A stretch of 64,000 nt of DNA from Nemertoderma westbladi (Eukaryota > Animalia > Xenacoelomorpha): assembly GCA_032718475.1 (NCBI GenBank), contig JAUCBJ010007101.1, forward strand, positions 1-64,000, given 5' to 3'. The position numbers were made by a program, and so were the translations under genes. Below, one piece after another: positions 38,327 to 62,829 of this stretch. Position 1 is the first letter of the stretch, and each line of letters begins with the position of its first letter. The notes under the pieces were generated by a model. It saw nothing but the letters and a program-made list of their open reading frames with translations. It did not search any database and was not told the DNA's origin.

Positions 38327-38352
38327 CCGCTCCCAGAAAATGGGATTTAAGT

Positions 38353-41386: not shown

Positions 41387-44300
41387 TTACGTTATGGAGT
41401 CCCTAGATGTTTGAAGGATTAGGGAGGTGGTCGTGGGAAGAGAATCTTGCCTTCCACAGTTTCCGGAGAGTCCTCCATTCCCTTCCGGTAAACACAAACG
41501 ACCAGCTGGGCGATTGAGTCGCTGCATCCCGAATACAATTCCAGGTTTCCTCTTCGTCCTGGAATAGTGACGATAGAAACATCGCTCTAAGTACACGACG
41601 GCCTTACAAAGCCGATTCCAGGAGCTATAGTGGTCCGTCGCTCCCTGCAGGAGAGGTGAGAGTCCCTGCGAGACGTCTGATGTTCCAGAGCTCCAATCGC
41701 TCTCTCTGATCTTCATGAAGGATCCACTCGCGGTGGGGAGGTCCAGATCCACGGCGTCGTCCCTGGCAATATGTAATACCGACAGATCTATCCCGGGTTC
41801 AAATAACTCCGCTCCACCCGTCCGGGTTTTAGGTTTAACTTTCTCCGCTCCCTTGGCTGGTCTAATCTCAGTCGGAGTAAGATGGGGAGGCCATTCATCC
41901 TCCTTACTCAGGAAGTCGGGTTCACCTAACCGGTCTGTAGTATCTGTCAGTTCTTGAGGAGTTGCTCCTCTGGAAGCGATGTCAGTTGGATTAAACTTCT
42001 TGGGGCAATATCTCCATTGATCTACATTGGAGCTAATATCGTCATTATCTGAGGAGTATGGTGTTCCCTCAGTTGGGTCGTCTCCCTCACTAGTATCATC
42101 TTCCCATTCACTCACCTGGCAGACGCGATCTTGAAGCAGTCTTTCTCTGAGCGTTCTACGGGAAGGTCCAGTAAGGTACCAACCTACTCTAGTTCTTACC
42201 GCATAGGTCTGAAGTGGTTGCGGTTGAGTAGGTCGTTTCTCTAATGTCTCCAGCGCCTCATGCGCGTTTTGACCGATTAATATTTGTACTCCAGGATAAT
42301 CGGTGTCGAATCTAGGGATGTTAAGTTGTTGGGCATGATCTTCTTCGTCCCAATTATAAGGTTCCACTTGGGTGGTAGCGAAGTTCTTTATTGCCACCAT
42401 TTTTACTGACCTTATACTGTATTCTCCTAGTTTATCCTGTGGAGTGGACAACTCACCTATATAATAGTCGGCAGCTACAGTAGAATTCCAAACCTGCATG
42501 ATCCCTGACATGTTTAGCTTGGTTCGGAACTTGGGTTGTCCAGCAAAGATGACTTCGGCTAGTTCTTTATCGATGAATGTTCCTGTGCTACCGGAGTCCA
42601 GGAGGGCGTTCACTATATAGCTCTTCTGAGGTCCGTGGACCCGTAACTGGACTACAGGAAATTCTCGGATTCCTATATTGGAAGTTGGCGCTTTCCAAGA
42701 TGGTCGTTGATCTGAAGTAGTTAGGGTGAGGTCGCTGTCTGTGTCTTTCTCATACATGAGTGCTCGATACACTGCGGTGCTGTTTATTAAGTAACAGGAT
42801 TCGTTTTCGTCGGAGAACTCGTCCGTATAGAATCCTTCCATCTCAGATTGATCAGTGTCGTTCACATCACTGAATTGGACATGTAGTTCGGACTCACTTA
42901 CCTGACTCGGGCTGTTTCGTTCGAATTCCGTGTGCAACAAGATATGATGTTTTGCGCCGCACTTTGCACACCTTGCGTCGGAGTAACAGGTTCGCCGTTG
43001 GTGTCCTCGTCTGAGGCAATTATAACACAACCGCTTATCCCACATGACTTCACGTCTGTCCTTTAGTGATTTCCTCAGGAATTCATCACACGCATTTAAA
43101 CGGTGGGGCCCGTCACACAGCACACATTTCGGCTTGATGTTACTTACTTTAACCTGTGCTATGTGGTGCACACTTGTTCTTTCCTCGGGCTTTCTCACCT
43201 GAATTCTTTTAGGAGACGTAGGAAGGGTTTTTTGTACCGGTTCCCTTCTGTCATTGGGTCGAGACTCGGATTTACTTACCTGATCTTTAGGCATTTTATT
43301 GACATAATAAGATCTGTCAGTGTCTTTCCCGCTGTCCTCTCCTTGAGAAGTTTGGCTTTCACCGTCGTCGGTATAACATACTGGTGTTACTCTTCTCCTA
43401 GAAACGGGTTTCTCACTTACCTTGTTTTCCAATGTCTTCTCTCTGGACTGCCTTAGGAGCTGTAATTTCACTTCTCTATCTAAGAATGACATGAGATCAG
43501 TCATGGTAGGGTCTCGTCGTTGTTGTTCCATCATATATAACACCTTCTTGTCCCAGCGTGTACCTACTCCACCCTTGGGCAAAGTAGATGCTAAGGCTCC
43601 TACAACCATAGAATTCTGGTATTCATGAGACTTACCTAACCAATCTAGTTGTCTACAGATCTCCTGAATCTCATCGGAAAACTCTATAATCCCGCTGCTA
43701 AGAAACTTTCGGGGGGCCATTAATTTCACATATAAATACCTAGCTATGTTAGTCCTATTACCATACCTGATGTTTAGTGTATCCCAAACTTGTCTTAATC
43801 CGTCTGGATGTCCAATAAACCTTAACGCCATTAACTTGGGAGATCCTTCCAAGCACTCGATGAGGAATCTAAGTTTCTCTCCATTAGATAGTACAGAGTT
43901 CTGTATGTTATCTTTGTAATATTCATTAAAAGGTAACCATTTCATCTCATCTCCATTGAACTTGACGATCTCTCCAACCTTTACCGCTTGTCGGGCTTCG
44001 GTTCTAGCCATTTGGCGTGTAAAACCTTCTTGAGCCATCGCATTATTGAATAGAGAATTATCAGTATATAAGTTTCTCGGATTATTATCAAGTCTAGATG
44101 AGATATCATTATCAACAGGTTTATAATTACCCTTAATAGGGTTCACTATAGGAGTTTCTATTTCGCTAGCAGTATAGATGCGTGTAGGCTCCACACCTTG
44201 CGCATGGGATACTTCAGACCTAACGGGTTGACACATTGTTACAGGGGGTGGTGGTATACCCTTTTGTAAATTGACTAATTTATCGCGTTCTAGCGCGATA

Positions 44301-44944
44301 CTTTGCTGCACTTCTTGCAACTCTAGCCTACTTTCCCTTACTGTGCCCTTGAATTGCTGGACAGTCTCCTGCATCTGCCCGAGCAGGATATCCATCCCCC
44401 GCCGTCTCTCGTCCACCCATTCGACCGCCGAAGCGGGAGTCGCCAACGTTGTAGCGGGCGGACGAGGGACAACGGGCAACAAATTATGAATATTTCGCTC
44501 GGGGTCCAGGACCTGAACTGTCTCCTGGGCAGTTCTATGGGGCACAGGTAGCTTAGTGCTATGCAGAGGGAATTTAGAGGTAGTTTCAGGGAGCACAGGT
44601 GTGTCTATCACCGAAGGGGTGATTTCAAGAACAGGCCTAATTATTTCAGGCTCATCTACTATAGTAGGGAGTCTTTCTATTTTAATTATTTGGTCTGTGG
44701 GCTCTGTACTACCTAAGTCTACACTAGCCAGTTTAAGTAGCTGGGAAATTAGAGGGAAATTAGATAACTTCCGACGGTGTGGCGTTCTTCTACGTCCGCT
44801 TGAACAAGATTTATTACCTCTACTTTCGGGATCTCTTATATCACCTTCATCGGAGGAGGCAAATCCCTGTCTTCTGATTTGTCTCCTCAAGTCTGCTTCT
44901 GCCACTGCCTCTGCCTCTTTTCTTTCCGCTTCTGCTGTTGCCAT
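41387..44944 (-). CDS. BEL/Pao Gag-protease with RNase H-tail remnant (element A)
   Basis: Capsid-like KFNGDEMKW...EKLRFL; three BEL-type knuckles (CVLCDGPHRLNAC, CYNCLRRGHQRRTC, CAKCGAKHHILLH); protease ALLDSGS; RTRVGWYLTGP; QWRYCP..NPTDIASRG. First in-frame ATG at 44944. Confidence 0.92.
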   Translation of the reverse strand: MATAEAERKEAEAVAEADLRRQIRRQGFASSDEGDIRDPESRGNKSCSSGRRRTPHRRKLSNFPLISQLLKLASVDLGSTEPTDQIIKIERLPTIVDEPEIIRPVLEITPSVIDTPVLPETTSKFPLHSTKLPVPHRTAQETVQVLDPERNIHNLLPVVPRPPATTLATPASAVEWVDERRRGMDILLGQMQETVQQFKGTVRESRLELQEVQQSIALERDKLVNLQKGIPPPPVTMCQPVRSEVSHAQGVEPTRIYTASEIETPIVNPIKGNYKPVDNDISSRLDNNPRNLYTDNSLFNNAMAQEGFTRQMARTEARQAVKVGEIVKFNGDEMKWLPFNEYYKDNIQNSVLSNGEKLRFLIECLEGSPKLMALRFIGHPDGLRQVWDTLNIRYGNRTNIARYLYVKLMAPRKFLSSGIIEFSDEIQEICRQLDWLGKSHEYQNSMVVGALASTLPKGGVGTRWDKKVLYMMEQQRRDPTMTDLMSFLDREVKLQLLRQSREKTLENKVSEKPVSRRRVTPVCYTDDGESQTSQGEDSGKDTDRSYYVNKMPKDQVSKSESRPNDRREPVQKTLPTSPKRIQVRKPEERTSVHHIAQVKVSNIKPKCVLCDGPHRLNACDEFLRKSLKDRREVMWDKRLCYNCLRRGHQRRTCYSDARCAKCGAKHHILLHTEFERNSPSQVSESELHVQFSDVNDTDQSEMEGFYTDEFSDENESCYLINSTAVYRALMYEKDTDSDLTLTTSDQRPSWKAPTSNIGIREFPVVQLRVHGPQKSYIVNALLDSGSTGTFIDKELAEVIFAGQPKFRTKLNMSGIMQVWNSTVAADYYIGELSTPQDKLGEYSIRSVKMVAIKNFATTQVEPYNWDEEDHAQQLNIPRFDTDYPGVQILIGQNAHEALETLEKRPTQPQPLQTYAVRTRVGWYLTGPSRRTLRERLLQDRVCQVSEWEDDTSEGDDPTEGTPYSSDNDDISSNVDQWRYCPKKFNPTDIASRGATPQELTDTTDRLGEPDFLSKEDEWPPHLTPTEIRPAKGAEKVKPKTRTGGAELFEPGIDLSVLHIARDDAVDLDLPTASGSFMKIRESDWSSGTSDVSQGLSPLLQGATDHYSSWNRLCKAVVYLERCFYRHYSRTKRKPGIVFGMQRLNRPAGRLCLPEGNGGLSGNCGRQDSLPTTTSLILQTSRDSIT

Positions 44945-47362
44945 TGCCTCTGCCACCTTCCTTTCAAGACACTGTCCAAGTCTAATTTTGTTTGCACAGT
45001 TGAATGCCTACTGCTATATTACAGTTAAAGCAAGTCTAGTAATTCAGTATCACTGCTAGCCTAGTAATTAATTACCGATACTGCTACTCAGTGTAGCGTG
45101 ATATATATAATATATTAGAATACCGGTATGCTTATAGTATATATAAGTATTATTACAGACTAGGTTTATCACAGAATACCGGTATAATTTTAGCACAAAT
45201 ATATATAAATATATAATAGGCCTATCGGGAATACCAGTATACAGCTTACAGTTTGTAGTATATATAATTCTGGACTAGAATTAATTACAAGTACCGGTAT
45301 AATTTCAGCCTAAATTTATAGAAATAAAGATAATAGGCCTATCGTAAATACCGGTATGCAGTTTACACTTATAGTGTATATATATAAGTATAATTACAAA
45401 CTAGAATTAATTACAGAATACCGGTATGATTTCAACCTAAAATTTATAGAAATAAATATAATAAGCCTATTGTAAATACCGGTATATCAATTATTTTAAA
45501 TAACTGAATTTCTGAATTTTAAGGGTTACTTGGTTACTTTACTTACTTTATTACCGTTATTTGAGCAGTAGTCCAACTGATATGGAGACCTAATTGTTGT
45601 ATGGCAGGCCTACTATTTATAAATCGTTTGAGTTGATTTATAATATATATATACCCGTTTTAATGGGTTTTGTCAATGTTTGAAATAAATGTTATTATTT
45701 CTGGGGAGTAATCACTACACAAAGCGGTGCGCTTTCAGTGAAGTGTTACTTATAGGACACTAAAACAAATAATTCTAATTTACCTAAGTTACTTAATACT
45801 ACAAATTACGTACAATTCGGGTGAGATTACAATCTCTAAATAAACACAAAAATTTACAAAAACACAAAATACGAATTTTCAGGGTAATTTTACAAGAAGT
45901 CTACAAACCAGCCTAACAAAGGGTTAGAAATCTGGTTATTACAACGGACAGGGTACTACGGTATTTAAAAATAATAAGTAGTAGTAAATACACTGCGTTG
46001 TCCAGATAGGAAAATACCACCGCCTGACGACCTATAGCCGTATCGCTATGGGTTCTACGTTATGTATCACGGAGTGTTCCTACCTAGAAGTTAATAGTGC
46101 TAATCGAACGTGCCTATCAACCACTTTACAACACAAATATAATGCCTACACTAATTACTTTCGGAAAGCACTGTACACTAAACCCTAAATTAGGTACGAG
46201 TACTTGTACAACAGATAATCAGTAGTTAAATATACTTGAACAGCTAAAAGAACCACGGCATCTGCTGGAGTGACCGGTGCACAAAATCACCAGTCTTTAC
46301 CTACGCCAAGCAGCCCGTGTAGTACCGGGGTTAATTTAACTATAGCTGTATGTTTAACAAACACAATTATTGTAGGAACAAACTTGGGGAATGAATGTTG
46401 CGAATAATCGCATAAACTCTGAATAATAAATATTACGCTACGCGTACAAACTACTCAAACAAAATGCAGACCGAACACTGACAGACTACTATCAAGCCTA
46501 AACAAACTACAGTATATGCAGACTCCGAAATAATTAGGTAGTATGCGTTCTAACCCAGTAGTACGACTTATTCTTTAGTTGGGGGTTTACCTTACAGCAT
46601 TTGCTGCCCCTACTTCCTAACCGTTCTTTATCGGACAGGTGATCTACACACACTACAATCCGTTCAGACCTAATAACAGCCAGACAACTATCCAGCCTAC
46701 AAATTATCTAAATAAATATTATACGCTACCCGTACAGACTTACACAAACAAAGTACAGACTAAACGATGGCAGACTACTCTCAAGCCTAAATAAACTACA
46801 GGACATGCAGACTCCGAAATGATTAGGTAGTATGCGTTCTAACCCAGTAGTACGACTTATTCTTTAGTTGGGGGTTTACCTTACAGCTTTTGCTGCCCCT
46901 ACTTCCTAACCGTTCTTTATCGGACAGATGATCTACACACACTGCAATCCGTTCAGACTTAACAACAATCAGACAACAGCTCAGCCTACAAATTGTCTGT
47001 ACAATCTGATCAGGCTTACACGCCTTCTGTTCAATACTGGCCTACAAATAAATAAAACTGACAGAAATAAGTAAGCTCCAAAAGAAACAAGGGGTGTACA
47101 GTCCCTAATCTCTTAAACAGCCTACCGGTATGCAACAATCAAATCGAATAATACTAATGTACTTATACGGAAGTACCGGTTAGGACAGTTGGGCCTACGG
47201 ACCTACAGAAGTACCGGTTCTGGCAGTTGGACCTACGGGCCTACAGCAGTACCGGTTCTGGCAGTTGGGCCTACTGACCTACAGATGTACCGTTCAGGTT
47301 TACCGGTTGACCGGTACTTTCAACTTTATTGCTTACTGCAATAAAGAAGCTATATCCATTAT

Positions 47363-48589
47363 TGTTCGCGCTTTCAGACCTTTGGCAGTTTAACCCGCCA
47401 AATTATGATGTCTTCTAGATAATAAATCACCTTTAGTCTATGACAAGTATTTAATGCACTACACTAGTCGAAACCAATCTGTGCGCGATCATTCACCCGC
47501 TGGATATACCCGGGAGATTGGGTTCGACGGCTTAATTTTATTGCTATGTAAGCCTAATGTATTATTCGACTGACAGTATTATATAATCTCTGACAATATT
47601 ATTCACCTTCGGGGAATATTAACAGTTCCTTTAGGACGTGGCGCTTTATCTATACAAACAGAGTTATGACTTAAACTACTCACAACGATATGGCTTAGTT
47701 ATAATTCACATATATGGCGCATTCTTTAGGAAATGCTTCGTTATCAGTCTCATTCATACACAATGCTGCACAATACTGCACACTGATCTGCCGATCTTCA
47801 CTGATTTTAGTTATATATAAAAGGAACACGGACCGACTCATGTAGGGTCTATCAAATAACATTAGATTCACTTCAAACCACTTTAACATAAGTCACAATC
47901 GTTATATGTAACCTTTCTCTCTTACCTTCGGTATATCAAGAATATTGGGTTTCGGGGTTATTTATCATTATTCCAAATATAATAATTCATCAACCATATT
48001 ATGAAGAACCGACAGTAAATAGCAGTATAACAATATAAAAGTATGCACAGGTTGTTTGATTAGGTATGGTGTGTTATGTTATGATAAATGCAGATAACGG
48101 ATATATGTCCTTATAATTAAGCCTACTAGTGTAAGGCTAAAGCCGTTCTTCCTGGCTTAGAATCACCAACAACACTAAAAACTGATAAGAATAACTATAA
48201 GAATACCAGCTACCCTTATTCTACAAAGATCTCACCCACCACAGAGAATGAGCATACAGATAGGAAATTCAGTTCAGTAGATTTGTGATAGGTCAAAATC
48301 GAAACCAACTCAAATCCTATTGGCAGATACAGAAGGCAGGGCTATGGGGCACCGTGGCAATATCAGCCGTTAGCCGTCGTCATGGTAGCGACACTGTTTT
48401 CAAGAGTATCGAGCTTTTTACGTCACGAAATTACAGATTATGTCCTCTAAAGTACAAATACAGAAGAAATGGCTTTTATGTCCTCTAAAACACCAGTACA
48501 GGAAGGACACGGCCTTTTTATGCCTGGTAAACCAACCACAGAGTACTTTACGGGGATAATAACCGGCTAATTACGCAAAAGCTTTTACA
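47363..48589 (-). repeat. 5' LTR of element A
   Basis: Near-identical to 37100-38326; upstream of gag on the minus strand. Confidence 0.97.
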
Positions 48590-49517
48590 GATACAGTTTC
48601 TGCTTGTGTGGCATTATAGATGCTGCTAGCATAATCCGCTACCTCACAGTGACATTACGGTAAAACCCCCAGGGATTTCACGATCTCAGTCGCTCTGTAA
48701 CTGAATTCCAGAGAAACACGGAAAAATAATTGCAGCATGGGGGGGGCTGGGGGTTAGGTACTGTCTGTGGTCGACGTTTCTCAATACGAGATACATGTAT
48801 CATGCCGGGTTTCTAACGTCTAACCATTTACTAACTGGCAGTATCACCATCCTAAATTAACCCAGGCTGGGATTACATTCCTGAGGTAGGTTTCGGGAAC
48901 CGCGCACCGAATTATGACAAAGTCCCTCAAGTGCCATTAGGGTAATTCCCTTTTTCGGTATTTAAGTAAACCAACCAGCGGTAAACGAAATGGACAAATT
49001 TGCGATCAAAGAAGTGAACTCCACCGCGAAACAAAACAATGCTGATGTGATGTAAAGCGACCCGGTTTCAATGAAGTGTGGTTTAATAGCTTAATATATA
49101 ATATTAAGACAATTATTTGGCCATTTGATCCATGAATTTCTATATAGTTCCAAAACAATAATAGAACCAACAGGATACATACACTCAAGATGAACTAAAT
49201 ATAATTAATAGAATACAGTTTTAATTTTGAGAGTCAGCTGTTGTTATTGATGGCGTGGCGTCCAATTTGCCCCAGAGTCTCCTCCCCCCTTATTTGCAAA
49301 ATTATAATTTTGTTATCAAAATTATTAGTTATAAATATGTCTGGCTCCAAAAATACGTACCAAGAGACCGACCGCTACAGTAGTTTCCAATACCAGCGCT
49401 CTACCAACCGAATACCAAGTAATTAGCCATGTTCGGCTCGCTATAGTGTGTAACAGTTCTTCTGGTCGGAGGCCTCATCCGGACCTGTTACATTTTACAG
49501 ACAATGTTTGAAATCCC

Positions 49518-50797
49518 TGTACGCGCTTTTGAAGACCTTTAGCAGTTTAACCTGCCAAAATTTATATGTCTTTTGATTTATAAATATACTTTAGAAGATG
49601 ACAAATATTTAATACCAATAAACACAACATTAGCAGAAGCCAGCCTAGTGCGCGTCCATTCACCCGCTGGATAATCCCGGGAGGCTGGATTCTGTCGGCT
49701 TAGATTATTATTGCAGTGAAGCTTACGGTATTGTATTATTCGATTGATCGTTAATAATTAATTTCTGACTAATATTATTCACTTTCGGGAAATATTAACA
49801 GTTCCTTTTAGGACGTGGCGCTCTATCTAAGTAAACAGAGATATGACTTATACTAATCACAACGGTAAGTCGGTAAGGCTTATGATTCACGTATGAGGCG
49901 CATTCTTTAGGAAATGCTTAGTTATCAGCCACAATCATGCACACTACCGGTAACGCACAATACTGCTCACTAATTTGCCGACCGTCAATGAATTTTATCA
50001 TATATAAAGAGAATAGCAACGGACTCATGTAGGGCTTATCAAATAGCATTAAATTCAATACACACCACAATAATATAAGTCGCAATCGCTATATATATAA
50101 CCCGCCTCTCTAACCTGTAGTGTATCAAGAAAATTGGGAAATTTGGGTTCTTTATAAATGTTCTCCAAATAATATTCAATCCACTGATATAAGATATGAC
50201 AACAGTAAAAACATTAAGACGGTAGGTTAAGATATGATATGAACAGATATGTACAGCGATATGCACTGATATGCACCGATATGTGAGTTGTTATGAACCG
50301 TAAGACTGATAACAGTCATACGCTCTATAATCTTAAGCCTACTAATGTTTCTTGCTAGAGCCGTTGTTTCTGGCTTAGACAGCAATAACAACAAAGTATC
50401 AGTAAAAAACTGTAAGACTGAACACTCTCCCTATGATCGACCGAAAAGCTACACGTCGACAGGAAAAATCGCTCTGATTGGCTCAAGCCAAACAAAGAAC
50501 CATGCGTCCAATGGCTGTTTCCATGTCAGCAACCAGCTGTTAGATGTCGTAATATGAATCATCACGGCTAAGCTATGAAAGGTATTTGTCGCATTGCAGG
50601 TTTTTTGCCTTACCATGTCCGCTAAAACACGTATATAGCAGAATGACTTTTATGTCCGTTAAAACACCTTAACGGTACCTTGCGGGCGAGGGGAATATAT
50701 ATACAGTTAGAGAACCTTTTTTAGAGTATTCCAGCACCTGGGGGGAAACTGGATTGCGAAGCAAAAGGGCCAGTTATATCCCACAGAAGCTTTTACA
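49518..50797 (-). repeat. 3' LTR of element B
   Basis: Near-identical to 60152-61432. Confidence 0.97.
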
Positions 50798-50823
50798 CCG
50801 CTCCCAGAAAATGGGATTTGAGT

Positions 50824-52290
50824 CTATACAATATACAAAATCACAGTTTCTAATATACGTAAATACTCTAAACAGTTAGTCTTTCTTGCCAGAGTCCTTT
50901 TCTCTTTGGGGCGAGCCACTTTACAAGGAGGGCTATAACTCCTGGGTGAAGGGTGCAATATGATTGCATCAGAGGGTGTAGGATTATGGTCGGTGTATCC
51001 GCCAGTCGAAGTACCGGGTTGATTGACATCAACGTCCGGGGAGAGGGGTCTAACGGCTTTGAGAGCTCGTTTCAAGACAGCCGCTCTTACGGGTCCTTTA
51101 CGAGTGGTCTGAACGAGGGCCGTGGGTGGACCATAGGCAGTTAGAAACTTCCGGGGTTTAATGGTCCTTTCCAACTCGCGTTCGCGGGCTCGGTATTCGT
51201 AAGGCCGTCGATGTACTTCCTGTAACTCGGGGTGTGAGTTAACAAACAAGTCTCCATAGTCCGGATCCTGACGGATATACTTGATTAAGTTATAGGAATG
51301 AAGGTCGCTAGGATTAACACTCCTGAGAAATTTGCGTACGAATTTAGTTGAAATACATTCTCCGACGCGCTTCAGTAGTTCGTAACTCGATATGCGTGAT
51401 TTCTGTTCGACAGAAGCGAATAGATAAGGATGGAACGCATAAATTCCTTCGTAAGCGCGTCCAGGATAATAACGATGGCGCGAATCACAATGTAAATCAG
51501 TGTTCGCTTCCCAAGCTCTGATGTAACGTAGTGTGATCATTTCATCTACGCTTTCCAAATCGTGATTAAAAGGGCAATCGAAACTGGCGTGTCCCTTTAG
51601 TTGACAATGGTGACATTGAGTCATAAATTGAGGGCAAACCGCAAAAATGTGCAAGTTATTGAGTCTGCAATACGCACAATAAATTTCCATCACCGGTTGT
51701 TCGTGGAAATAGGAACAGCGGACGTTTGTGTCCATGGGCGTAACATGGTCTCTCGATGCGCATAACCAACAACGTTGCCGAGAAACATAGTTGGCATGGC
51801 GATAATTGTACGCAGTGAGACACTGTGGACCTTGATACCATTCTAGGATGTAATCGTTGTCGCTGTTCCGGGCGCGATAGGCTGAATCTCCTCAGATTCT
51901 AGGCATATTGGTTCGTCTTCCCAGTCTGTTACGAATAGAATTTTCGTGATCTATTCTCGGTTTATCGTTCCGACTCCGCTGGGTATGATATTTAAATAGA
52001 ACCATTTCCCTTTCGGTGTCTACATCGTCCGTATCATGTAAATCGATAGGATGGCCGGTAGTTAGGAAGTCCATATACGTACTATTACGATGCGTATAGC
52101 GAGCGGTGGATTTTCGATAGTCCAATTCACGCGCAAGTTGCTCTTGGGACATCGGCGGTTCGATATAACGACCATCGTCCTCCGTAATGGTTGGATCGGC
52201 TTCACCGCGTATTAAGCTATCCACAAATGCTTGCAAAGGTAGAGTATATCGCTCCCTGATACCAAGATCATCTTCTATCAACTCCGTCAT
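50824..52290 (-). pseudogene. Accessory Zn-knuckle ORF of element B (one frame, single internal TGA)
   Basis: ORFs 51892-52290 and 50824-51735 are in frame, separated only by TGA at 51892-51894; CWLCASRDH, CAYC...HIFAVC, CHHCQLKGHASFDC; homologous to the C-terminal part of 26931-28658. Confidence 0.8.
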
Positions 52291-53917
52291 ATCTGCTATC
52301 TGAGTTTATTAATATCAAATGAGTTTGTATTTAGGCGAGCGGGCGTCGCTGCCTACTTCTCTTTGCCCCCGGACAGTGGGATTCTCAGCGCCGATGTACC
52401 GTCGTCGCGGTGTTTACGCCAACATGTAGCAACATCACGACAACGATAACCGGCACAAGTCACTCCACTGTCCGTCCCAAAGGCTTGAATCCACTTTAGG
52501 TTCTTTCTATAGGAGAGTTGGGCTACTTTCACAATTGCGACTAGCTACTGTAAACACACCTTAGCAGTAACATTCACCTATAAACGCACAAATTCCACAC
52601 AACTGTCACCAATTGTACACATACAGGCCATTTGTCCGTTAGTCAGTGCCTTCCAGAATGTCACGTTATTACTGTGTATCCTTGGATACTAACAGTGTGC
52701 TATATTCTCTATGCTATGCAATGGGACAAGCTTTCTATTGTTCTTTTAACTTGCTTCTAATTCTAGCGTGGGTGTTGCTATGGTGACATTATGGAATGCT
52801 AGCGGTAGAATTAGGGTAATTCTCATGCATACAGATCTGGGATGCTATTTAATAATAATTCTTTAATTGTCAATATCCTCTTTATGCATGATTTTATTAA
52901 TTTTATCGGCTATTGACTATATGTTGGAGATTCTCGCACTCTAATACACTCAATAGGATGAATCTCCACTCCCATGATCTATTAATTAATGGAATTTTGG
53001 GAATGTTATAAATTGTACAAAATGACAATTTATGAAATTCATTTAATGTATGAATTTAAATTTATTCCCGTGAATTTTATTATTTGATGTTAAAATTGAC
53101 ACAATTTGATTCCAGAGCAGGTCTGGGAACATAGGATCCTTAATTCTATGAAATTTGTCTTTTAAGAATATCGGTAAGTGCTACGATATCTTAATCGACT
53201 AGAATTGTTAACAGATCTGAATTTTACAGATTTTAATAAATATTAAATTAATATTTAAGATGGGCACCGATTTATTCCAGAACTTGTCTGGGGACGTTAA
53301 CCACTGATTCTAGAATTTGTCTTTCAAGTATATCGGTGGGTGCCGCGATATCTTAATCGACTAGAATTACAGATGGTCAAAAGGTTTAACAGATTTATTT
53401 GCGTTTTACGCTACTGTTAGAGGGACATCACGCTACTATATGTATTATTTAATATAAGGTAGAAGAGAAATATCGCACGAAGCAATGTCAGTGTGAAGAG
53501 GCAAGTCGTTTCCAAGGTCTACCCAGAGCTTGGTTTAGCCGAGACACGAGGATCTGAACTTTGCATTCCTAATACTCTGCCTACCAATAATACTTGAATA
53601 TAGTAGGAGCTTTATTGTACTTTAATAAGTACGGACATTTCATCTTACTGTAGTCACGTATTTATAATATGATACGGACAGTAAGGAAAGAGAAAAATAA
53701 TTATTTCTCGCCGTCGCACTAAATATATATTATAAGTAATTACATACGTAATAAACACTAATATATTGCACTAATCTACTAAATAATCACTAAAATAACA
53801 TTCTACTAAATAAAATTAAAGAAAACGATTATAATAAAATTACATAATAATACATACATAAATATAAAATAAAAACAAATATAAAATGATATAGTCACAC
53901 GCCCACTCCACATGCTA

Positions 53918-56900
53918 TCACGTTATGGAGTCCCTAGATATTTGTCGGATTAGGGAAGTGGTCGTAGGAAGAGTATCTTGCCTTCCATAGTTTCCGGACA
54001 GTTTTCGGTCTCTTTCCAGTAAACATAAACGACTAGCTGGGCGATTGAGTGGTTGTGTTAGTTTCTCCGCTCCCTTGGCCTGTCTATTCTCCGCCGTGGT
54101 AAGATGAGGAGGCCATTCTTCTTCTTCTTTACTTAAGAAGTCGGATCCACCTAACCAGCCTGGAGTATCTATCAGTTCTTGAGGAGTTGCTCCTCTGGAA
54201 GCGATGTCGGCTGGATTAATCGTCCCAAGGCAATGTCTCCATTGATCTACATTGGAGTTAATATCGTCATTATCTGAGGAGTATGGTGTTCCCTCAGTTG
54301 GGTCGTCCACCTCACTGCTCTCCACTTCCCATTCCTTTACTTGGTATACCTGTTGTTGAGGTAATCTCTCTTTGAGAGTTCTACGGGAAGGGCCAGTGAA
54401 GTACCAACCTACTCTAGTTCTTACCGCATAAGTTTGTAATGGCTGCGGTTGAGCAGGCCGTTTCTCCAATGTCTCGAGCGCCTCATGCGCGTTTTGGCCG
54501 ATGAGGATTTGCACTCCAGGATAATCGGTTTGGAATCGAGGTATCTCAAGATGTTGGATGCACTCGTCCTCGTCCCAGTTATAAGGTTCTGCTTGAGTAG
54601 TAGCAAAGTTCTTTATAGCCACCATTTTTACTGACCTTATACCTTGTGTTCCTAACTTATCCTGGGGGGTGGACAACACACCTACATAGTAATCTGCCGT
54701 TAGGGTAGATTTCCAAACCTGCATAATTCCTGACATATTCAATTTAGTCCGGAACTTGGGTTGTCCAGCAAAGATATCTTCGGCTAGTTCTTGATCGATG
54801 AATGTTCCTGTGCTGCCAGAGTCAAGGAGGGCGTTCACTATGTAGCTTTTGTTAAGACCGTGAACTCTTACTTGAACTACAGGAAATTCTCTGATTCCTA
54901 CGTTGGAAGCTGGAGCTTTCCAAGATGGTTGTTTGGCGAAAGTAGTTGGGGGAAACTCATCGTTGATGTCCTTTTCGTAAGTAAGTGCTCGATACACTGC
55001 GGTATTGATTAGATAACAGGATTCGTTGGCGTCGGAGAATTCGTCAGTATAGAATCCTTCCATCTCAGATTCTTGATCAGTGTCGTTTACATCACTGAAT
55101 TGGACATGTAGTTCGGGCTCACTTACCTGACTCAGTTTGTCTCGTTCGAACTCACTGTGTAACAAGATGTGATGTTTCGCGCCACACTTTGCACACTTTA
55201 TGTCGGAGTAACAGGTTCGCCGTTGGTGTCCTGATCTGAGGCAATTATAGCATAACCGCTTATTCCACAGGACTGTACGTCTGTCTACAAGGGATTTCTT
55301 TAGAAATTCAGCACACGCACTCAAACGGTGGGGCCCGTCGCACAGCGCACATTTTGGTTTGATGTTACTCACCTTAACTTGGTTAACGTTATGCACTCTC
55401 GTTCTTTCTTCGGGCTTTCTTCCGTGAATTCTCTTAGGAGACGTAGGAGGAGTTGTTGTTACCTGTTCTCTCCTGTCACTGGTTCGAGACTTGTATTTAC
55501 TTACGTCTTTATAGGTCTTGTTATCATAGTAAGATTTTGCTGTGTCTTTCCCGCTGTCCTCTTCTTGAGAAGCTTGGCTTTCGCCGTCGTCAGTATAACA
55601 CACTGGTATTATCCTTCTCCTAGAAACGGGTTTCTCACTTACCTTATTTTCCGATGTTTTCTCTCTGGACTGCCTTATGAGTTGTAATTTTACTTCACTA
55701 TCTAAGAAGGACATGAGATCAGCCATGGTAGGACTTCGTCGTTGTTGTTCATTCATGTACAACACTTTCTTGTCCCAGCGTGTACATACTCCACCCTTTG
55801 GTAAAGTAGAGACTACGGCTCCAATAACCATGGAACTCTGATATTCATGCGACTTACCTAACCAGTCCAGTTGTCTACAGATTTCCTGATTTTCATCAGA
55901 AAACTCTATAATCCCGCTACTAAGGAAGTGTCGAGGGGCTACTAATTTTGCATACAAATACTTAGCTATGTTATCCTTGTTACCATACCTGATGTTTAAT
56001 GTATCCCAAACTTGTCTTAATCCTTCTGGATGTCCAATAAACTTTAACGCCATTAACTTGGGAGGTCCTTCCAAGCACTTGCTGAGGAACCTAAGTTTCT
56101 CTTCGTTAGATAGCACAGAGTTCTGTATGCTGTCTTTGTAATATTCGTTGAAAGGTAACCATTTCATCTCATCTCCATTGAATTTGACGATCTCTCCCAC
56201 TTTGACCGCTTGGCGGGCTTCTGTTCTAGCCATCTGACGCGTAAAGCTTTCTTGGGCCATCGTGTTATTTAATATCGAATTATCGGTATATAAAATTCTC
56301 GGATCATTATCAGGTCTATAGGGAATATCATTAATAACAGGTCTATAATCACCCTTAATAGGGTTTGCTATAGGAGTTTCAACTTCACTAGCAGTATATA
56401 TGCGTGTAGGCTCCACACCTTGCGCATGTATTACTTCAGACCTAACAGGTTGACACAATGTTACAGGGGGTATTGGTATGCCCTTTTGTATATTGACTAA
56501 TTTGTCGCGTTCTAGCGCGATACTTTGCTGCACTTCTTGCAACTCTGCTCTACCTTCCCTCACTGTTCCCTTAAGTTGGTGGACAGTCTCCTGCATCTGT
56601 CCTAGCAGGAGATTCATCCCCCGCCGTCCCTCTTCCACCCACTCAACCGCCGAAGCGGGAGTCGCCAACATAGTAGCGGGCTGACGCGGGACGACGGGAG
56701 ACAAATTTTTGATTTCTCTCTCTGCTATCTGGACAGGGATATTCTCTTGGACTGTTCTACCGGGTACAGGCAGTGTAGTACTATGTAAAGGGAATTTAGA
56801 GTTAAGCTCTGGAAGTACAGGGGTCTCTAACACAGAAGTGACTTTGGGAACGACAGGCCTAATTATTTCAGGCTCATCAACTATTGTAGGGAGTCTTTTG

Positions 56901-57964
56901 ACCTTAATACTTTGGGCTGTAGGTTCTATACTACTCAAGTCTGTGCTAGCTAGCTGTCTTCTAACAGCTGGGGGCAAATCAGGCAATTTGCGACGGTAAG
57001 ATGTTTTTCTACGCCTACTTAGATGAGATCTATTTCCTCCGCCTTCAGGATCGGTGGTCTCGCCTTCCTCCGAGGATGTGTATCCCTGGCGCTTGGGAGT
57101 AGATTTTCTCATCATCTGCATTTGTTTAGCAGTAAACTGTTTATTTATACTGTCTTGCGTCTCTTGCAGATTTTCCAACTCCAGTTGGATAGTCTCCTCA
57201 GAAGCTCTCCGTTCTGCTTCTGCCACCTTTCTTTCGGCTTCTGCTTCTGCTTCTGCTGCCTTTACTGCTGCTGCCTTTCGGTTCTCTATCTGTTTTTTCT
57301 TTATTTGTTCTTCTTGGACTCTAACGAGGCGGAGTTTTTCATCAAATTTAGCTTGTTCTGCAGCTAACATTTCCGCATCGATTGCGTCCAACACAAGCTT
57401 GGTTCTTTCACTATTAGGGCGAAGTCCAGACAGTCGTCTCCTCAACTCTTCGTCTCCTATGAATCGCTGATAGTCTGACAGATAGATGTCAATGGCGTCT
57501 CTAGTTCGCGGCTTCTCTGCTGTTAATTCGCTTTCCACTTCGCTTTCCACTTGAGAAGAAGTGGCGTCGGTTGATTCTTCATAGGTTGGCCGTTCATCAT
57601 AAACCGTATCCACCATCTTCGCTCCGCGTTCGGGCGTCCGCTCAGCAGTATCCGAACTACTGGAGCTATCGGGCCGCTGAGAACTAGGTTCTAGGCTAGG
57701 ATGTTGCTGCTGTTTGACAGCGGCTTCTTGATCCCGCTTGACTTGGGCCCGAGTACCGATGATAGACCTATGTTGTTCTACCAGCCTAGGGTCTGACACT
57801 ACTACTGTAGGGATGGCCTTTTTTACAATAGTAGGTGACTTAGACTTGGATCTAGGATGTTCTATACTTGGATCTGGGTCACTGATCTTTTTAAGGCACT
57901 GTCTAACAGTCATTCTAACACTTTCTAAGAGACTATCCGACAGTGATTGGGTTGTGTCTGACAT
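53918..57964 (-). CDS. BEL/Pao Gag-protease with RNase H-tail remnant (element B), 1348 aa
   Basis: Coiled-coil N-terminus, capsid-like region, three knuckles, ALLDSGS, then QWRHC..INPADIASRG..WLGGSDFL; no YxDD or DDE motifs. Confidence 0.94.
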   Translation of the reverse strand: MSDTTQSLSDSLLESVRMTVRQCLKKISDPDPSIEHPRSKSKSPTIVKKAIPTVVVSDPRLVEQHRSIIGTRAQVKRDQEAAVKQQQHPSLEPSSQRPDSSSSSDTAERTPERGAKMVDTVYDERPTYEESTDATSSQVESEVESELTAEKPRTRDAIDIYLSDYQRFIGDEELRRRLSGLRPNSERTKLVLDAIDAEMLAAEQAKFDEKLRLVRVQEEQIKKKQIENRKAAAVKAAEAEAEAERKVAEAERRASEETIQLELENLQETQDSINKQFTAKQMQMMRKSTPKRQGYTSSEEGETTDPEGGGNRSHLSRRRKTSYRRKLPDLPPAVRRQLASTDLSSIEPTAQSIKVKRLPTIVDEPEIIRPVVPKVTSVLETPVLPELNSKFPLHSTTLPVPGRTVQENIPVQIAEREIKNLSPVVPRQPATMLATPASAVEWVEEGRRGMNLLLGQMQETVHQLKGTVREGRAELQEVQQSIALERDKLVNIQKGIPIPPVTLCQPVRSEVIHAQGVEPTRIYTASEVETPIANPIKGDYRPVINDIPYRPDNDPRILYTDNSILNNTMAQESFTRQMARTEARQAVKVGEIVKFNGDEMKWLPFNEYYKDSIQNSVLSNEEKLRFLSKCLEGPPKLMALKFIGHPEGLRQVWDTLNIRYGNKDNIAKYLYAKLVAPRHFLSSGIIEFSDENQEICRQLDWLGKSHEYQSSMVIGAVVSTLPKGGVCTRWDKKVLYMNEQQRRSPTMADLMSFLDSEVKLQLIRQSREKTSENKVSEKPVSRRRIIPVCYTDDGESQASQEEDSGKDTAKSYYDNKTYKDVSKYKSRTSDRREQVTTTPPTSPKRIHGRKPEERTRVHNVNQVKVSNIKPKCALCDGPHRLSACAEFLKKSLVDRRTVLWNKRLCYNCLRSGHQRRTCYSDIKCAKCGAKHHILLHSEFERDKLSQVSEPELHVQFSDVNDTDQESEMEGFYTDEFSDANESCYLINTAVYRALTYEKDINDEFPPTTFAKQPSWKAPASNVGIREFPVVQVRVHGLNKSYIVNALLDSGSTGTFIDQELAEDIFAGQPKFRTKLNMSGIMQVWKSTLTADYYVGVLSTPQDKLGTQGIRSVKMVAIKNFATTQAEPYNWDEDECIQHLEIPRFQTDYPGVQILIGQNAHEALETLEKRPAQPQPLQTYAVRTRVGWYFTGPSRRTLKERLPQQQVYQVKEWEVESSEVDDPTEGTPYSSDNDDINSNVDQWRHCLGTINPADIASRGATPQELIDTPGWLGGSDFLSKEEEEWPPHLTTAENRQAKGAEKLTQPLNRPASRLCLLERDRKLSGNYGRQDTLPTTTSLIRQISRDSIT

Positions 57965-60151
57965 GTTTGTTTACACAGTTGAATGCCTACGGCTATAAAT
58001 ACAGTTAAAGCAAGTCTAGCAATTCAGTATCACTGTTAGCCTAGTACCGGTAATTACAGTATTAGAATACCGGTATATACTTATAGTATGTATAAGTATT
58101 GTAAACTAGTTTTGTCACAGAGTACCGGTATATAAATTTAGCACAAATATATATAAATATATAATAGGCCTATCGTGAATACCGGTATGCAGCTTACACT
58201 TATAGTATATCAGTATAATTTTGGACTAGAATTAATTACAGAGTACCGGTATGATTTCAGCTCAAATTTATAGAAATAAATCTAATAAGCCTATGGTAAA
58301 TACCGGTATGTCAATTATTTTAGAATAATTGAATTTCTGAATATTTTAGGGTTACTTGGTTACTTTAACTTACTTTATTACCGTTATTTAAGCAGTAGTC
58401 CAACTGATATGGAGACCTAGTTGTTGTATGGCAGGCCTACTATTTATAAATCGTTTGAGTTGATTTATAATAGATATATACCCGTTTAAAATGGGTTTGT
58501 CAATACTTGAAATAAATGTTATTATTTCTGGGGGTTCACTACACAGAAGCTGTGCGCTCTCAGTGAAGTGCTATTTATTTGACACTAAAACTGATAATTC
58601 TAATTTACCTAAGTTACTTAATACTACAAATTACTTACGATACGGGTGAGATTAAATCTCTAATTAACCACAACAAAAAATATTACGTACGAATTTTTAG
58701 GGTAATTTTACAGGAAGTCTACAAACCAGCCTAACAAAGGGTTAGATTTCTGGTTATTACAACGGACAGGGTACTACGGTATTTGAAAATAATAAGTAGT
58801 AGTAAATATATTGCACTGTCCAGATAGGAAAATACCACCGCCTGACGACCTATAACCGTATCGCTATAGGTACTACGTTATGTATCACGGATTGTTCCTA
58901 CCTAGAAGTTAATTACCGCGGACTACCAGATCCAGCGTGCCTATTAACCACTTTACAACACAAATATACTGCCTACACACTAATTACTTCGGAAAGCACT
59001 GTACACTAAACCCTAAATTAGGTACAAGTATTGGTATAACAAATAATCAGCAGTTAAATATACTTGAACAGTTAAAAGAACCACGGCATCTGCTGGAGTG
59101 ACCGAAGCACAAAGTCACCAGTCTTTACCTACGCCAAGCAGCCCGTGTAGTACCGGGGTTAATTTAACTATAACGGTATGTGTAACAAACACAATTACTG
59201 TAGGAATAAACTTGGGGACATGAATGTTGCGAATAATCGCATAAACTCTGAATAATAAATATTACGCTACCCGTACAGAATACTCAAACAAATACAAACC
59301 AAAACGCTGGCAGACTACCACCAAGCCTAAATAAACTACCGTACGTGTAGATTCTGAAATAGTTAGTTAGTATGCGTTCTAACACGGTAGTACGACTTAT
59401 TCTTTAAGAGGGGATTGACCTTACCGCTATGGCTGCCCCAACTTACTAACGGAGCTTTATCAGACAAACTCTACACACGCAGCAATCTCTTCAGGCCTAA
59501 TAATAGCTAGACAACAATCCAGCCTACAAAATATCTGAGTAATAACTATTACGGTACCCGAACAGACCACACAAACAAACACAGGCCAAAACACTGGCAG
59601 AATACTGTCAAGCCTAAATAAACTACAGTATGTGCAGATTCCAAAACGGTTAGTTAGTATGCGTTCTAACACGGTAGTACGACTTATTCTTTAAGAGGGG
59701 ATTGACCTTACAGCGATGGCTGCCCCAACTTACTAACTGGCACTCTATCGGACAAACTCTACACACGCCGTAATCTCTCCAAACCCAACAACAATCTAAC
59801 AACAGTCTGGCCTACAATTATCTGAACAATCTGAGCAGACTTACACGTCTTCAGCTCAATATTAACTTACTAGGAAATAAAACTGACAGAAATAAGTAAA
59901 CTATACAAAAGAATGAGGGGTGATCAATCCCTATTCCTCTGGTAGCCTACAATATACTATAGATCACAATCGAAATAATACTAATGTACTTATACTGGAA
60001 GTACCGGTTAGGACAGTTGGGCCTACAGACCTACAGAAGTACCGGTTCTGGCAGTTGGGCCTACTGACCTACAGAAGTACCGGTTCAGGTTTACCGGTTG
60101 ACCAGTACTTTCAACTTTATTGCTTACTGCAATAAAGTCAATGACTGTTAT

Positions 60152-61432
60152 TGTACGCGCTTTTGAAGACCTTTAGCAGTTTAACCTGCCAAAATTTATA
60201 TGTCTTTTGATTTATAAATATACTTTAGAAGATGACAAATATTTAATACCAATAAACACAACATTAGCAGAAGCCAGCCTAGTGCGCGTCCATTCACCCG
60301 CTGGATAATCCCGGGAGGCTGGATTCTGTCGGCTTAGATTATTATTGCAGTGAAGCTTACGGTATTGTATTATTCGATTGATCGTTAATAATTAATTTCT
60401 GACTAATATTATTCACTTTCGGGAAATATTAACAGTTCCTTTTAGGACGTGGCGCTCTATCTAAGTAAACAGAGATATGACTTATACTAATCACAACGGT
60501 AAGTCGGTAAGGCTTATGATTCACGTATGAGGCGCATTCTTTAGGAAATGCTTAGTTATCAGCCACAATCATGCACACTACCGGTAACGCACAATACTGC
60601 TCACTAATTTGCCGACCGTCAATGAATTTTATCATATATAAAGAGAATAGCAACGGACTCATGTAGGGCTTATCAAATAGCATTAAATTCAATACACACC
60701 ACAATAATATAAGTCGCAATCGCTATATATATAACCCGCCTCTCTAACCTGTAGTGTATCAAGAAAATTGGGAAATTTGGGTTCTTTATAAATGTTCTCC
60801 AAATAATATTCAATCCACTGATATAAGATATGACAACAGTAAAAACATTAAGACGGTAGGTTAAGATATGATATGAACAGATATGTACAGCGATATGCAC
60901 TGATATGGACCGATATGTGAGTTGTTATGAACCGTAAGACTGATAACAGTCATACGCTCTATAATCTTAAGCCTACTAATGTTTCTTGCTAGAGCCGTTG
61001 TTTCTGGCTTAGACAGCAATAACAACAAAGTATCAGTAAAAAACTGTAAGACTGAACACTCTCCCTATGATCGACCGAAAAGCTACACGTCGACAGGAAA
61101 AATCGCTCTGATTGGCTCAAGCCAAACAAAGAACCATGCGTCCAATGGCTGTTTCCATGTCAGCAACCAGCTGTTAGATGTCGTAATATGAATCATCACG
61201 GCTAAGCTATGAAAGGTATTTTTCGCATTGCAGGTTTTTTGCCTTACCATGTCCGCTAAAACACGTATATAGCAGAATGACTTTTATGTCCGTTAAAACA
61301 CCTGTAACGGTACCTTGCGGGCGAGGGGAATATATATACAGTTAGAGAACCTTTTTTAGAGTATTCCAGCGCCTGGGGGGAAACTGGATTGCGAAGCAAA
61401 AGGGCCAGTTATATCCCACAGAAGCTTTTACA
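60152..61432 (-). repeat. 5' LTR of element B
   Basis: Near-identical to 49518-50797. Confidence 0.97.
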
Positions 61433-62829
61433 ATCCCACACTTAAAATGAAAATCATCACATCCATCACTGATCACTCTTATTTGTTTCGGCAATTAATA
61501 ATAGTATTGGTACGGTGTTAATATGTTTTATTATTATTAAGTTCCCATTTGTTGGCTCTGTAGTGTATCGTTCATATGACTATCAGTGCTACTAGCTAAT
61601 GGACTGTAACTATTAACGTTCCGTTGTGATTTAATCCAACTGGCTTTACTACGGAACATCGCCAAACGGAACCACGGAATATTCCGTCTGTCAGACCCCC
61701 AGGATGGGGAAAGGGACACCATATCGGACAGACTGAAACCGGTCGAATGGAGATACATCACCGGGTAGAAAATCAACGGCGTAACCAGGACAACCGCCAG
61801 TGTGAGTATTACCCACGGGTCGTATTTCTTTATCGCTTTGCAACGGTACTCTATGGACCACAACAATCTTGTGTGATTCATCGCGTCAAAAACATCGAAA
61901 CAAACATTTCTTTCGCCACCATCCATCTCCGAACTATTCTTGTAACGTCTGTTTGAATCTTTATAAAGCGTTTCGCATGCTTCACAAACTGTGCAGTTAA
62001 CTCCAGCGATGCACATGTTGATAGGGTTGACTTCCTTGTGGTCCTCAAAACAACTTTTGACGATTTCAACATCTTTAATGAAGTCCAGGGTTGTCTTGGT
62101 AATTGCGTGGTGGACAGTCCCATTGATAGTGACATTACGGAAACACGCGTCGCAATGCGATTCGTACCAAAGTTTCTTTACGAATGTAAAGGATAAACGT
62201 ATTGGGTTTGAGACTGGCGTCGTTGATTATTTTGTTACAAACTGGATTCCTTTGGATGGATTTGTAAACGTCTACGAACCCTTCGAACGCATAGTGTTGC
62301 ACTGAGGTGCACACTAACATTTCCTGTTCTTATTTCTCCTAAGTAGGAAAACAGCCAATGAGGTACAAGCAGTGAGAAAGAGGGTATATTAAGCGTTCAT
62401 TTGATTGGTCACTTGACATATTTAGTCCAGCTGGTAACTCAATGATGTAATTTAAATATTGTATATCCATAATTGTAAATTTCTTGAATTTCAACAAATT
62501 TAGCTTCCGGTAGAAAGTTACATAGACAGTCTGGAGGTCTGAAAAAATTCATAATAATAATAAAATATGTATTTGTTCATAAAATAACATTAACTTTCCA
62601 TATAATATCTGTTAGGGGCGCGCAGACCTGAAAAACTGACCGTTGCACAAATGCAACATCATGCAGGAAGGTACAAAATTTGTTCGGCTGATTGTTCAGA
62701 AATTTAGGTTGATTTTATACATTTATGTTAATTATTGAGTTAATTTGGGTGTCTATTACATGGCTTCCTCGAAATTGACTTCAATTTCATTAGGTCATTA
62801 GGGGGGGGGGGGGGTGGGGAATGTGCGGG

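Follow-up and report, generated by a model that had tools for sequence, protein, structure and literature searches.

Self-priming of reverse transcription has already been described in Ty3/gypsy elements (Tf1/sushi, Tcn1) and predicted in Ty1/copia (TAR). The Tf1 and Tf2 elements of Schizosaccharomyces pombe, Tj1, and the Tf1/sushi and Tcn1 groups of Ty3/gypsy chromoviruses have no tRNA site; approximately 11 nt beside the 5' LTR are complementary to the LTR of the same element, and in Tf1 an RNase H cut after base 11 makes the primer (PMC7175516, PMC4600332, PMC6317226). In the TAR lineage of plant Ty1/copia elements (Houba, Osr-1), complementarity to the LTR led to a prediction of self-priming for 89% of 203 elements (PMC6317226 supplement 3). 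Fungal GalEa copia elements, with their Conserved Hairpin Site, and bivalve TRIMs are described as lacking a tRNA site and carrying a 9-bp hairpin immediately past the 5' LTR (PMC5445492, PMC6934838). In the ICTV description, BEL/Pao elements (Belpaoviridae) are primed by tRNA-Arg or tRNA-Gly at a site of 18 nt, and their replication is presented as poorly understood (PMC8742986).

Here, we analyze two LTR retrotransposons, A and B, in a stretch of 64,000 nucleotides (the window) of contig JAUCBJ010007101.1 of Nemertoderma westbladi. As in Tf1, a tRNA site is absent and an LTR complement of approximately 11 nt lies beside the 5' LTR; unlike in Tf1, the proteins are of the BEL/Pao and not the gypsy type, and reverse transcriptase (RT) is missing. 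We consider it probable (roughly 0.7) that A and B rely on Tf1-like self-priming, in which the element's own RNA would replace the tRNA and RT would be supplied in trans.

Structure and coding content of the elements

A and B are young minus-strand elements, each with an LTR pair and a target duplication, and all their features given below are on the minus strand. Element A (37100-48589) is flanked by the 5-bp duplication GATAC (37095-37099 and 48590-48594); its 5' LTR of 1227 bp (47363-48589) differs from the 3' LTR (37100-38326) by four substitutions. Element B (49518-61432) is flanked by ATCCC (49513-49517 and 61433-61437), and its 5' LTR of 1281 bp (60152-61432) differs from the 3' LTR (49518-50797) by three substitutions and one indel. 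The B insertion site is empty in contigs of sequencing runs X1 and X3, and the A/B family is very abundant in host DNA, as judged from sequencing-run contigs. A short purine-rich tract, identical in the two elements, precedes the 3' LTR (38327-38334 in A, 50798-50805 in B). The TG...CA LTR ends, the 5-bp target duplications and the polypurine tract are those of Belpaoviridae.

The coding content points the same way. The Gag-protease frame of A (41387-45007, stop to stop) contains DUF1759 (E 9.5e-12), and its comparison with full BEL/Pao proteins yielded matches to Gag, protease and an RNase H-end remnant, and to nothing else. The corresponding frame of B (53918-57970, 1350 aa) has DUF1759, three Cys/His knuckles, a protease motif and the same type of remnant. 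DUF1759 above the cut-off, the three knuckles and the protease motif identify a BEL/Pao-type Gag and protease; among protein relatives, DUF1759 was carried by 8/8 matches in one search and by 27 of the top 32 in another. In contrast to Belpaoviridae, RT and integrase are deleted from both elements and the 18-nt tRNA site is absent; the sole pol match is the RNase H-end remnant of 45-55 aa. Because RT and integrase are missing, we file A and B as non-autonomous derivatives, not as complete BEL/Pao members. The proteins are not those of Ty3/gypsy chromoviruses (the Tf1/sushi group). A and B would work like Tf1 but are not Tf1/sushi members.

Element B has an additional sense reading frame near the 3' LTR (50824-52305), in which a stop separates segments of 137 aa and 355 aa lying in the same frame; it is rich in Cys and His. 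A Pfam search with this frame gave nothing below E 0.05, and a homologue search with the 355-aa part found none. Protein searches for a close relative or an RT partner of A and B returned distant best matches only, and two scans of viral contigs for relatives found none. In a Gag-protease tree built without the named clade references (BEL, Pao, Tas, Sinbad, Suzu, Flow, Dan), A and B are on a long branch of unsure placement; any homology of mechanism between A/B and their relatives is therefore tentative.

Pairing of the primer-binding position with the LTR

The primer-binding position directly follows the 5' LTR, at 47351-47362 in A and 60141-60151 in B. In B, it forms 11 Watson-Crick pairs with a candidate self-primer inside the LTR (60943-60953, LTR positions 480-490; second copy in the 3' LTR at 50309-50319). 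In A, it forms 12 pairs, one of them G-U, with the homologous site (48094-48105, LTR positions 485-496; second copy at 37831-37842). All six pairs of coordinates proposed in an earlier, sequence-only reading were exact, and its pair counts, the G-U pair in A and the lack of TGG in B were reproduced. According to the rule used to call plant self-primers, complementarity should span at least 10 bp and start 0-5 bp after the LTR (PMC6317226). B would be called under this rule from its Watson-Crick pairs, A only when one G-U is allowed. Since the TG...CA ends and target duplications fix the LTR ends, the first base past the 5' LTR is, in A as in B, also the first of the paired segment. Such a match anywhere in the LTR was obtained in 12/20,000 dinucleotide shuffles for B and 80/20,000 for A; these two results are not independent because A and B are homologous.

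The comparison of A with B bears directly on how the site is maintained. If the pairs are numbered starting next to the LTR, numbers 6, 8 and 9 are altered on both sides, in agreement with the earlier claim of three paired positions at which the partner changes as well; pair 5, which is G-U in A and G-C in B, is altered on one side, and B has lost pair 12. The own pairs have energies of -11.5 and -12.4 kcal/mol, versus -2.4 and -3.0 for the A/B cross-pairs. This covariation within the A/B family is that of two copies; among the matches listed for contigs of runs X1, X3, X4 and X5, no variant was seen at either site, but this comparison is uninformative, as the listed X1 matches were all at least 31 bases from a contig end and alignments to divergent subfamilies would be cut off. 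Between A and B, 5/12 bases of the primer-binding position differ, compared to 3/101 in the following leader (Fisher p 2.7e-4); the difference from U5 is not significant (p 0.066). The excess over the leader indicates that the primer-binding position tracks the LTR site, the opposite of what is expected for a site held by a conserved tRNA.

Priming by a host tRNA, a tRNA fragment or another small RNA, with the LTR complement as a by-product, is accordingly very improbable, although a tRNA primer is the ICTV norm for the family. TGG-less half-tRNA primers exist in copia lineages (PMC6317226), and A has TGG at primer-binding positions 5-7. However, B has no TGG, and the TGG of A would require a tRNA ending in ATCCA, which is absent from the tables of tRNA ends used by metazoan gypsy elements (PMC13524379 supplements), a set other than that of the host itself; the TGG of A is thus neither conserved nor matched by any tRNA end in these tables. 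Both the divergence between the sister elements and the change of letters in every related family (see below) are also at odds with this explanation.

Related BEL/Pao loci from metagenomes

The same pairing signature is present in distant, RT-coding relatives. All 8/8 loci with a fixed LTR end are without TGG and show a complementarity of 10-15 nt to their own LTR, which 0-9 of 300 shuffles per locus reproduced, whereas cross-family matches are mostly of 4-9 nt. With locus L045 added, there are eight families in which the LTR end is fixed by two copies, all of them without a TGG site and all self-pairing. In RT-RNase H, 14 representatives are 44-61% identical, and the primer-binding position has different letters in every related family.

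In many relatives, the pairing spans a predicted GT-AG splice junction inside the LTR: 18/56 loci (13 families) versus 1.1 expected, compared to 2, 2 and 2 of 56 loci for decoy splice signals. It should be noted that the scan settings were tuned on the first loci; an earlier blind scan was too permissive, with many chance matches. In the families with a predicted splice, the intron end is 4-7 nt ahead of the primer 3' end, and the LTR still contains the intron. This is compatible with joining in the 5' copy of R and speaks against a site in U3. The unspliced form, as in A and B, was seen in 5/56 relatives versus 2.0 expected, a weak enrichment, with a fixed end only in L061. For L063, which has a plausible LTR end, a search for a splice donor found none. 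In A, a perfect 12-nt match across a GT-AG pair (LTR 492-1002) is likely due to chance: donor and acceptor are weak, the match is absent in B, and 7/300 shuffles gave one.

These loci largely refute chance, or a one-time passive inverted duplication by template switching, as the source of the complementarity. AT-rich 11-mers do match a 1.2-kb LTR in 0.06-0.4% of shuffles, and many windows were screened in the sequence-only reading; however, a one-off copy would decay, yet three pairs are altered on both sides, and unrelated families have the signature with other letters. We regard this explanation as hardly credible.

RNA folding and the position of the transcription start

The U5 region is predicted to form a stem next to the primer-binding position. 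In A (47363-47491), 47483-47491 would pair with 47363-47371, stacking on the primer duplex, with a hairpin at 47381-47402; in B (60152-60292), 60284-60292 would pair with 60152-60160, with a hairpin at 60171-60194. One pair of the predicted stem is altered on both sides between A and B, a comparison of two sequences only. A U5 stem-loop is reportedly needed in Tf1, as the title of Lin and Levin 1998 has it; in A and B, such a stem is a prediction from the fold.

A 9-bp hairpin lies just downstream of the primer-binding position, as had been noted earlier, at 47324-47346 in A and 60115-60137 in B. Being identical in the two elements, it shows conservation but no covariation. Its pattern had no match in metagenome contigs, and an Rfam search of 59000-61500 gave none. 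The absence of a tRNA site and the 9-bp hairpin are shared with GalEa and the TRIMs; no LTR complement was found for GalEa, whereas in A and B a separate LTR-complementary segment precedes the hairpin.

The pairing depends on where the RNA starts. A pairing probability of ~1 is predicted only for RNAs that begin no further than approximately 4 nt (B) or 15 nt (A) from the site, and one of ~0 once 20-60 nt more upstream RNA is included; long-range folds over 800 nt are unreliable in either direction. The loop between the paired segments, a point of difference from Tf1, is 731-791 nt in A and B, versus 87-175 nt in relatives. A long cis loop and the predicted sequestration of the site by upstream sequence would both be avoided if the element RNA primed in trans, from a second packaged RNA or a separate short LTR transcript, and such transcripts could be plentiful in view of the abundance of the family. 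We nevertheless consider trans priming unlikely, given that A and B each pair well with the LTR of the same element but poorly with the sister LTR, a distinction that a mixed pool would blur, that the short loops of relatives are suited to cis folding, and that the predicted U5 stem would join the ends.

The sequence-only reading placed a tataa approximately 10 nt upstream of the LTR site; the TATA-like motif is there, but it is not a consensus TATA box, with no TATAWAW match in A or B. In an animal promoter, this motif would set the start ~10-25 nt downstream of the site, and a conserved TCATAAC is found 33-35 nt past it in the A/B LTR alignment. The site would then be in U3, and its pairing with the leader would circularize the RNA or act as a packaging or translation switch, with some other, unknown primer. 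Promoter-like CCAAT motifs at LTR positions 267 and 318, common to A and B, suggest a start earlier than the pairing site, which, in view of the predicted folds, counts against the pairing. Circularization, which had been put forward as the alternative, does not explain why the pairing starts precisely where the LTR ends, and any other primer would be blocked by the duplex. Moreover, pairing in relatives needs splicing of an intron retained in the LTR, and a U3 site in packaged RNA could probably not keep that intron. A U3 site is, thus, quite unlikely.

Self-priming was earlier taken to predict a start exactly at the LTR site (~60953 in B, ~48105 in A), which is too strict. In L043 and L061, a clear TATA box precedes the paired segment by >120 nt, and most relatives have that segment interrupted by a predicted intron; the primer can therefore come from the interior of R. 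The geometry among relatives is mixed. Likewise, a main start downstream of the site would not by itself settle the question, because Tf2 mostly starts downstream of its own self-primer, while an upstream start yields the competent RNA (PMC5341516).

Proposed mechanism and its implications

Self-priming is favored because the pairing starts at base 1 after the LTR, where minus-strand synthesis must begin, because three two-sided changes accompany own-pair energies that beat the cross-pairs, and because independent families show the same signature. The proposal that a BEL/Pao lineage self-primes thus stands as the best reading at the sequence level. In this model, the pairing site would be within R of the element RNA and would fold onto the primer-binding position, next to the U5 stem; RNase H of the trans-supplied RT would, in the manner of Tf1, cut directly 3' to the site, and the released 3' end would prime minus-strand DNA synthesis. 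During plus-strand synthesis, the primer sequence would be returned to the primer-binding site, and the joint change of both sites would follow from this.

A broader version, to which we give somewhat better than even odds, is that much of aquatic-animal BEL/Pao self-primes with an internal R segment, usually assembled from two exons by the spliceosome. A and B would be an intron-less, RT-less form, and the copied-back primer would let each family drift to a private primer. This differs from Tf1, where the primer is the first 11 nt and not, as often predicted in relatives of A and B, an intron-split internal segment of R. TAR elements show the same kind of LTR complementarity and represent a second superfamily with a self-priming route; however, they are plant copia elements, and a splice-built primer is not mentioned in the accessible text.

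No paper on BEL/Pao self-priming was listed in a literature search that did not extend to supplements on bioRxiv or to most papers behind subscription, among them the first descriptions of Tf1, sushi and C. elegans Cer, which may bear on novelty. If the model is correct, tRNA independence evolved in all three LTR superfamilies, BEL/Pao RT can cut RNA within an RNA duplex, and splicing gates reverse transcription in relatives. It would likewise account for BEL/Pao annotations that lack a primer site, render such elements immune to tRNA-fragment control and offer a simple rule for annotation. Its predictions are precise, with the primer 3' end and the splice joints defined to the base.

The window also contains a decayed BEL/Pao pol at 2659-7729, which has no DNA similarity to A or B (48% over 60 aa). 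An OSTM1-like gene neighbors the elements.

Two BEL/Pao-derived elements in the window

Self-comparison of the window revealed two minus-strand elements, both of them young, with TG...CA ends and a 5-bp target duplication. Element A (37100-48589, -) has 1227-bp LTRs with four differing bases, and element B (49518-61432, -) has LTRs of 1281 and 1280 bp with three differing bases and one indel. Their host is an animal. The insertion site of B is empty in contigs of sequencing runs X1 and X3, and the summed contig depth of the LTR, which is thousands of times that of a single-copy neighbour and is not a copy number, shows a large family. A and B are colinear (~82%) across LTR, leader and coding region; thus, the LTR and the coding part have travelled together.

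The long frames of A and B contain DUF1759, three Cys/His knuckles and a protease motif; DUF1759 was present in 8/8 homologues of one protein search and in 27 of the 32 best matches of another. Compared to full BEL/Pao polyproteins, the regions matched in A and B are limited to Gag, protease and a remnant of 45-55 aa from the RNase H end. They are non-autonomous BEL/Pao derivatives that need reverse transcriptase (RT) and integrase in trans; a partner supplying these was looked for, and none was found. A Gag-protease tree built with FastTree from 78 rows puts A and B on a long branch, and their placement is unsure. Before its 3' LTR, B has an additional sense frame (window 50824-52305, -) that contains Cys/His motifs and is partly deleted in A; we found no family and no homologue for it. 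Window 2659-7729 (-) holds a BEL/Pao RT-RNase H-integrase that is decayed and spread over several frames; it is unrelated to A and B at the DNA level, and neither LTR nor gag was found around it.

The primer-binding position pairs with the element's own LTR

The sequence-only reading, whose coordinates proved exact throughout, held that the primer-binding position pairs with the element's own LTR, and this is the case in both elements, in register from the first base past the LTR. In B, positions 60141-60151 form 11 Watson-Crick pairs with LTR 480-490 (60943-60953), and 12 of 20,000 shuffles were as good; in A, positions 47351-47362 form 12 pairs, one of them G-U, with LTR 485-496 (48094-48105), and 80 of 20,000 shuffles were as good. 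The three compensatory changes claimed between A and B are also present, pairs 6, 8 and 9 being altered on both strands, while pair 5 is altered on one side only and pair 12 is absent in B. The own duplexes have energies of -11.5 and -12.4 kcal/mol, versus -2.4 and -3.0 for the crossed A/B duplexes. The pairing is a real feature of A and B, and chance resemblance is the least probable explanation of it. The G-U of A falls on a CpG of the primer-binding position, and both LTR sites of A, the 5' one within window 47363-48589, retain this CpG; this fits C-to-T decay after insertion.

The primer-binding position differs between A and B at 5/12 bases, compared to 3/101 in the adjoining leader (p 2.7e-4); its divergence versus that of U5 is not significant (p 0.066). 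It follows the LTR site; a site for a tRNA would be expected to be the better conserved stretch. Priming by a host tRNA or tRNA fragment is very improbable. The TGG of A would need a tRNA ending in ATCCA, a string absent from the supplementary tables of PMC13524379 (seven files searched), which list tRNA ends used by metazoan gypsy elements. According to ICTV, Belpaoviridae have a primer site for tRNA-Arg or tRNA-Gly (PMC8742986), and A and B fail to show this feature of their own family.

On this sequence evidence, we consider it probable (about 0.7) that A and B self-prime in cis with their own RNA. The LTR site would pair with the primer-binding position, RNase H of the trans-supplied RT would cut just past the LTR site, the new 3' end would be extended, and the primer-binding site would be regenerated from the primer. 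In retroviruses, plus-strand synthesis copies the tRNA primer; such copying would couple the primer-binding position and the LTR site in one step. Element RNA acting as the primer in trans is an unlikely reading of the same complementarity.

In the predicted fold of both elements, a stem closing U5 stacks on the primer duplex, next to a U5 hairpin, and has one two-sided change between A and B. The 9-bp leader hairpin (60115-60137 and 47324-47346, -), reported as conserved, is identical in A and B; the element-strand sequence of its 3' arm contains AATAAA, which may be a hidden poly(A) signal. Short repeats directly follow the hairpin in both elements.

Transcription start of A and B

Predicted pairing is ~1 for an RNA starting at the LTR site, stays so for starts up to ~4 nt upstream in B and ~15 nt in A, falls to ~0 with 20-60 nt more upstream RNA in both, and at 100 nt is back to 0.7 in A, not in B. 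A pyrimidine-adenine step at the 5' end of the 11-nt duplex in both elements is a weak start hint. A TATA-like motif does lie upstream of the LTR site, as had been noted, but is not a consensus box, and CCAAT boxes at LTR 267 and 318 hint at an earlier start. The same pairing read as U3-leader circularisation, the other function proposed from the sequence, is rather improbable. An intron-less OSTM1-like frame occupies window 61537-62226 (-), with B 99 nt past its stop on the same strand; read-through from it would confound mapping of the B start site.

Relatives with pairing across predicted GT-AG junctions

Metagenome contigs (17/64 parts covered) were scanned with 20 aligned BEL/Pao polyproteins as the query; 591 stretches were examined, 545 were confirmed and 78 loci were kept. 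Because the non-insect clade had more weight in the query, the scanned loci include no tRNA-primed control. RT-RNase H identity is 44-61% among 14 family representatives, which are spread across a clade of 64 rows, separate from the one holding the insect element; in several (L035, L043, L052, L061 and L075) the frames are intact and 1900-2200 aa long. The LTR 3' end was fixed by two-copy divergence for eight loci of seven families (L007 via its sister L076); L045 is an additional, eighth family. The LTRs at L052:9505 and L045:91 end in TATA, not CA, the former with a 5-bp target duplication.

TGG occurred in the first bases after the LTR in 0/8 loci with a fixed LTR end, and own-LTR pairing of 10-15 nt in 8/8. 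It is contiguous, at offset 0, in L061; in the other seven it spans a GT-AG junction at offsets of 0-4, the donors being GTAAG or GTACG and the acceptors rich in pyrimidines. For each locus, 0-9 of 300 shuffles were as good with any GT-AG permitted, and crossed pairs between unrelated families reach 4-10 nt.

The junction scan covered the 56 loci with at least 150 nt upstream; 22 shorter ones were dropped. Spliced matches of at least 10 nt were found in 18/56 loci (13 families) versus 1.1 expected, under settings tuned after the first eight loci had been seen; with decoy splice signals, the counts were 2, 2 and 2 of 56. Contiguous matches of at least 11 nt were found in 5/56 versus 2.0 expected, only that of L061 at a fixed end; those of L070 and L009 are at inferred LTR ends. 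The other 38 loci, without a spliced match, mostly miss part of the LTR and could be tRNA-primed; a loose tRNA-site pattern had matches in 18 loci, none of them located at a fixed LTR end. The top match of L007 and L008 (13 nt) is away from the fixed end and probably due to chance. Outside these counts, L029:90-300 shows, by eye, contiguous complementarity to the LTR over ~16 pairs, with a bulge of one base.

The 3' end of the predicted intron always lies 4-7 nt before the primer 3' end, and the intron is retained in the LTR. A joint in U3 of the packaged RNA would mean loss of the intron on copying. If the joint forms in the R copy at the 5' end, with a cut of the RNA past the paired segment, the template for the upstream part would be the unspliced 3' LTR, and the intron would persist. 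The TATA box is >120 nt upstream of the paired segment in L043 and L061; the primer would thus often be an internal part of R, a difference from Tf1. In L014, the TATA box is 31 nt before the paired segment (LTR 162-198), a position that would leave just 5 nt for the first exon. From primer end to LTR end, the distance is 87-175 nt in the relatives examined versus 731-791 nt in A and B.

Comparison with known systems

An old report is said to give C. elegans Cer7 its own tRNA-like primer. A and B would work like Tf1, but are not members of that group. The primer of Tf1 is the stretch of its first 11 bases, released by RNase H cleavage (PMC7175516); the same route is proposed for Tj1 (PMC4600332), Tf2 has alternative starts (PMC5341516), and self-priming is predicted for Tcn1 and for the TAR lineage of copia (PMC6317226). 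The available parts of PMC3601003, PMC3286476, PMC8220671, PMC6934838, PMC5445492 and PMC13524379 do not describe BEL/Pao self-priming, and a term search for primer sites gave no mention in PMC3118150, PMC554778, PMC11117352 and PMC12440569. Full-text searches, with most subscription papers outside their scope, returned no paper on BEL/Pao self-priming.

Other features of the window

Both leaders contain a tandem duplication of ~287 bp (window 46425-46998 and 59247-59825), and a purine tract is overlapped by a 5-bp hairpin in B (50798-50815, -) and A (38327-38344, -). Stretches 11448-12395 (-), 25678-28658 (+), 13131-19060, 20565 onwards and 30481-33594 jointly hold a frame for a receptor of the rhodopsin family, two long frames that gave no Pfam hit, and three large tandem arrays, one of which is of 45 bp.
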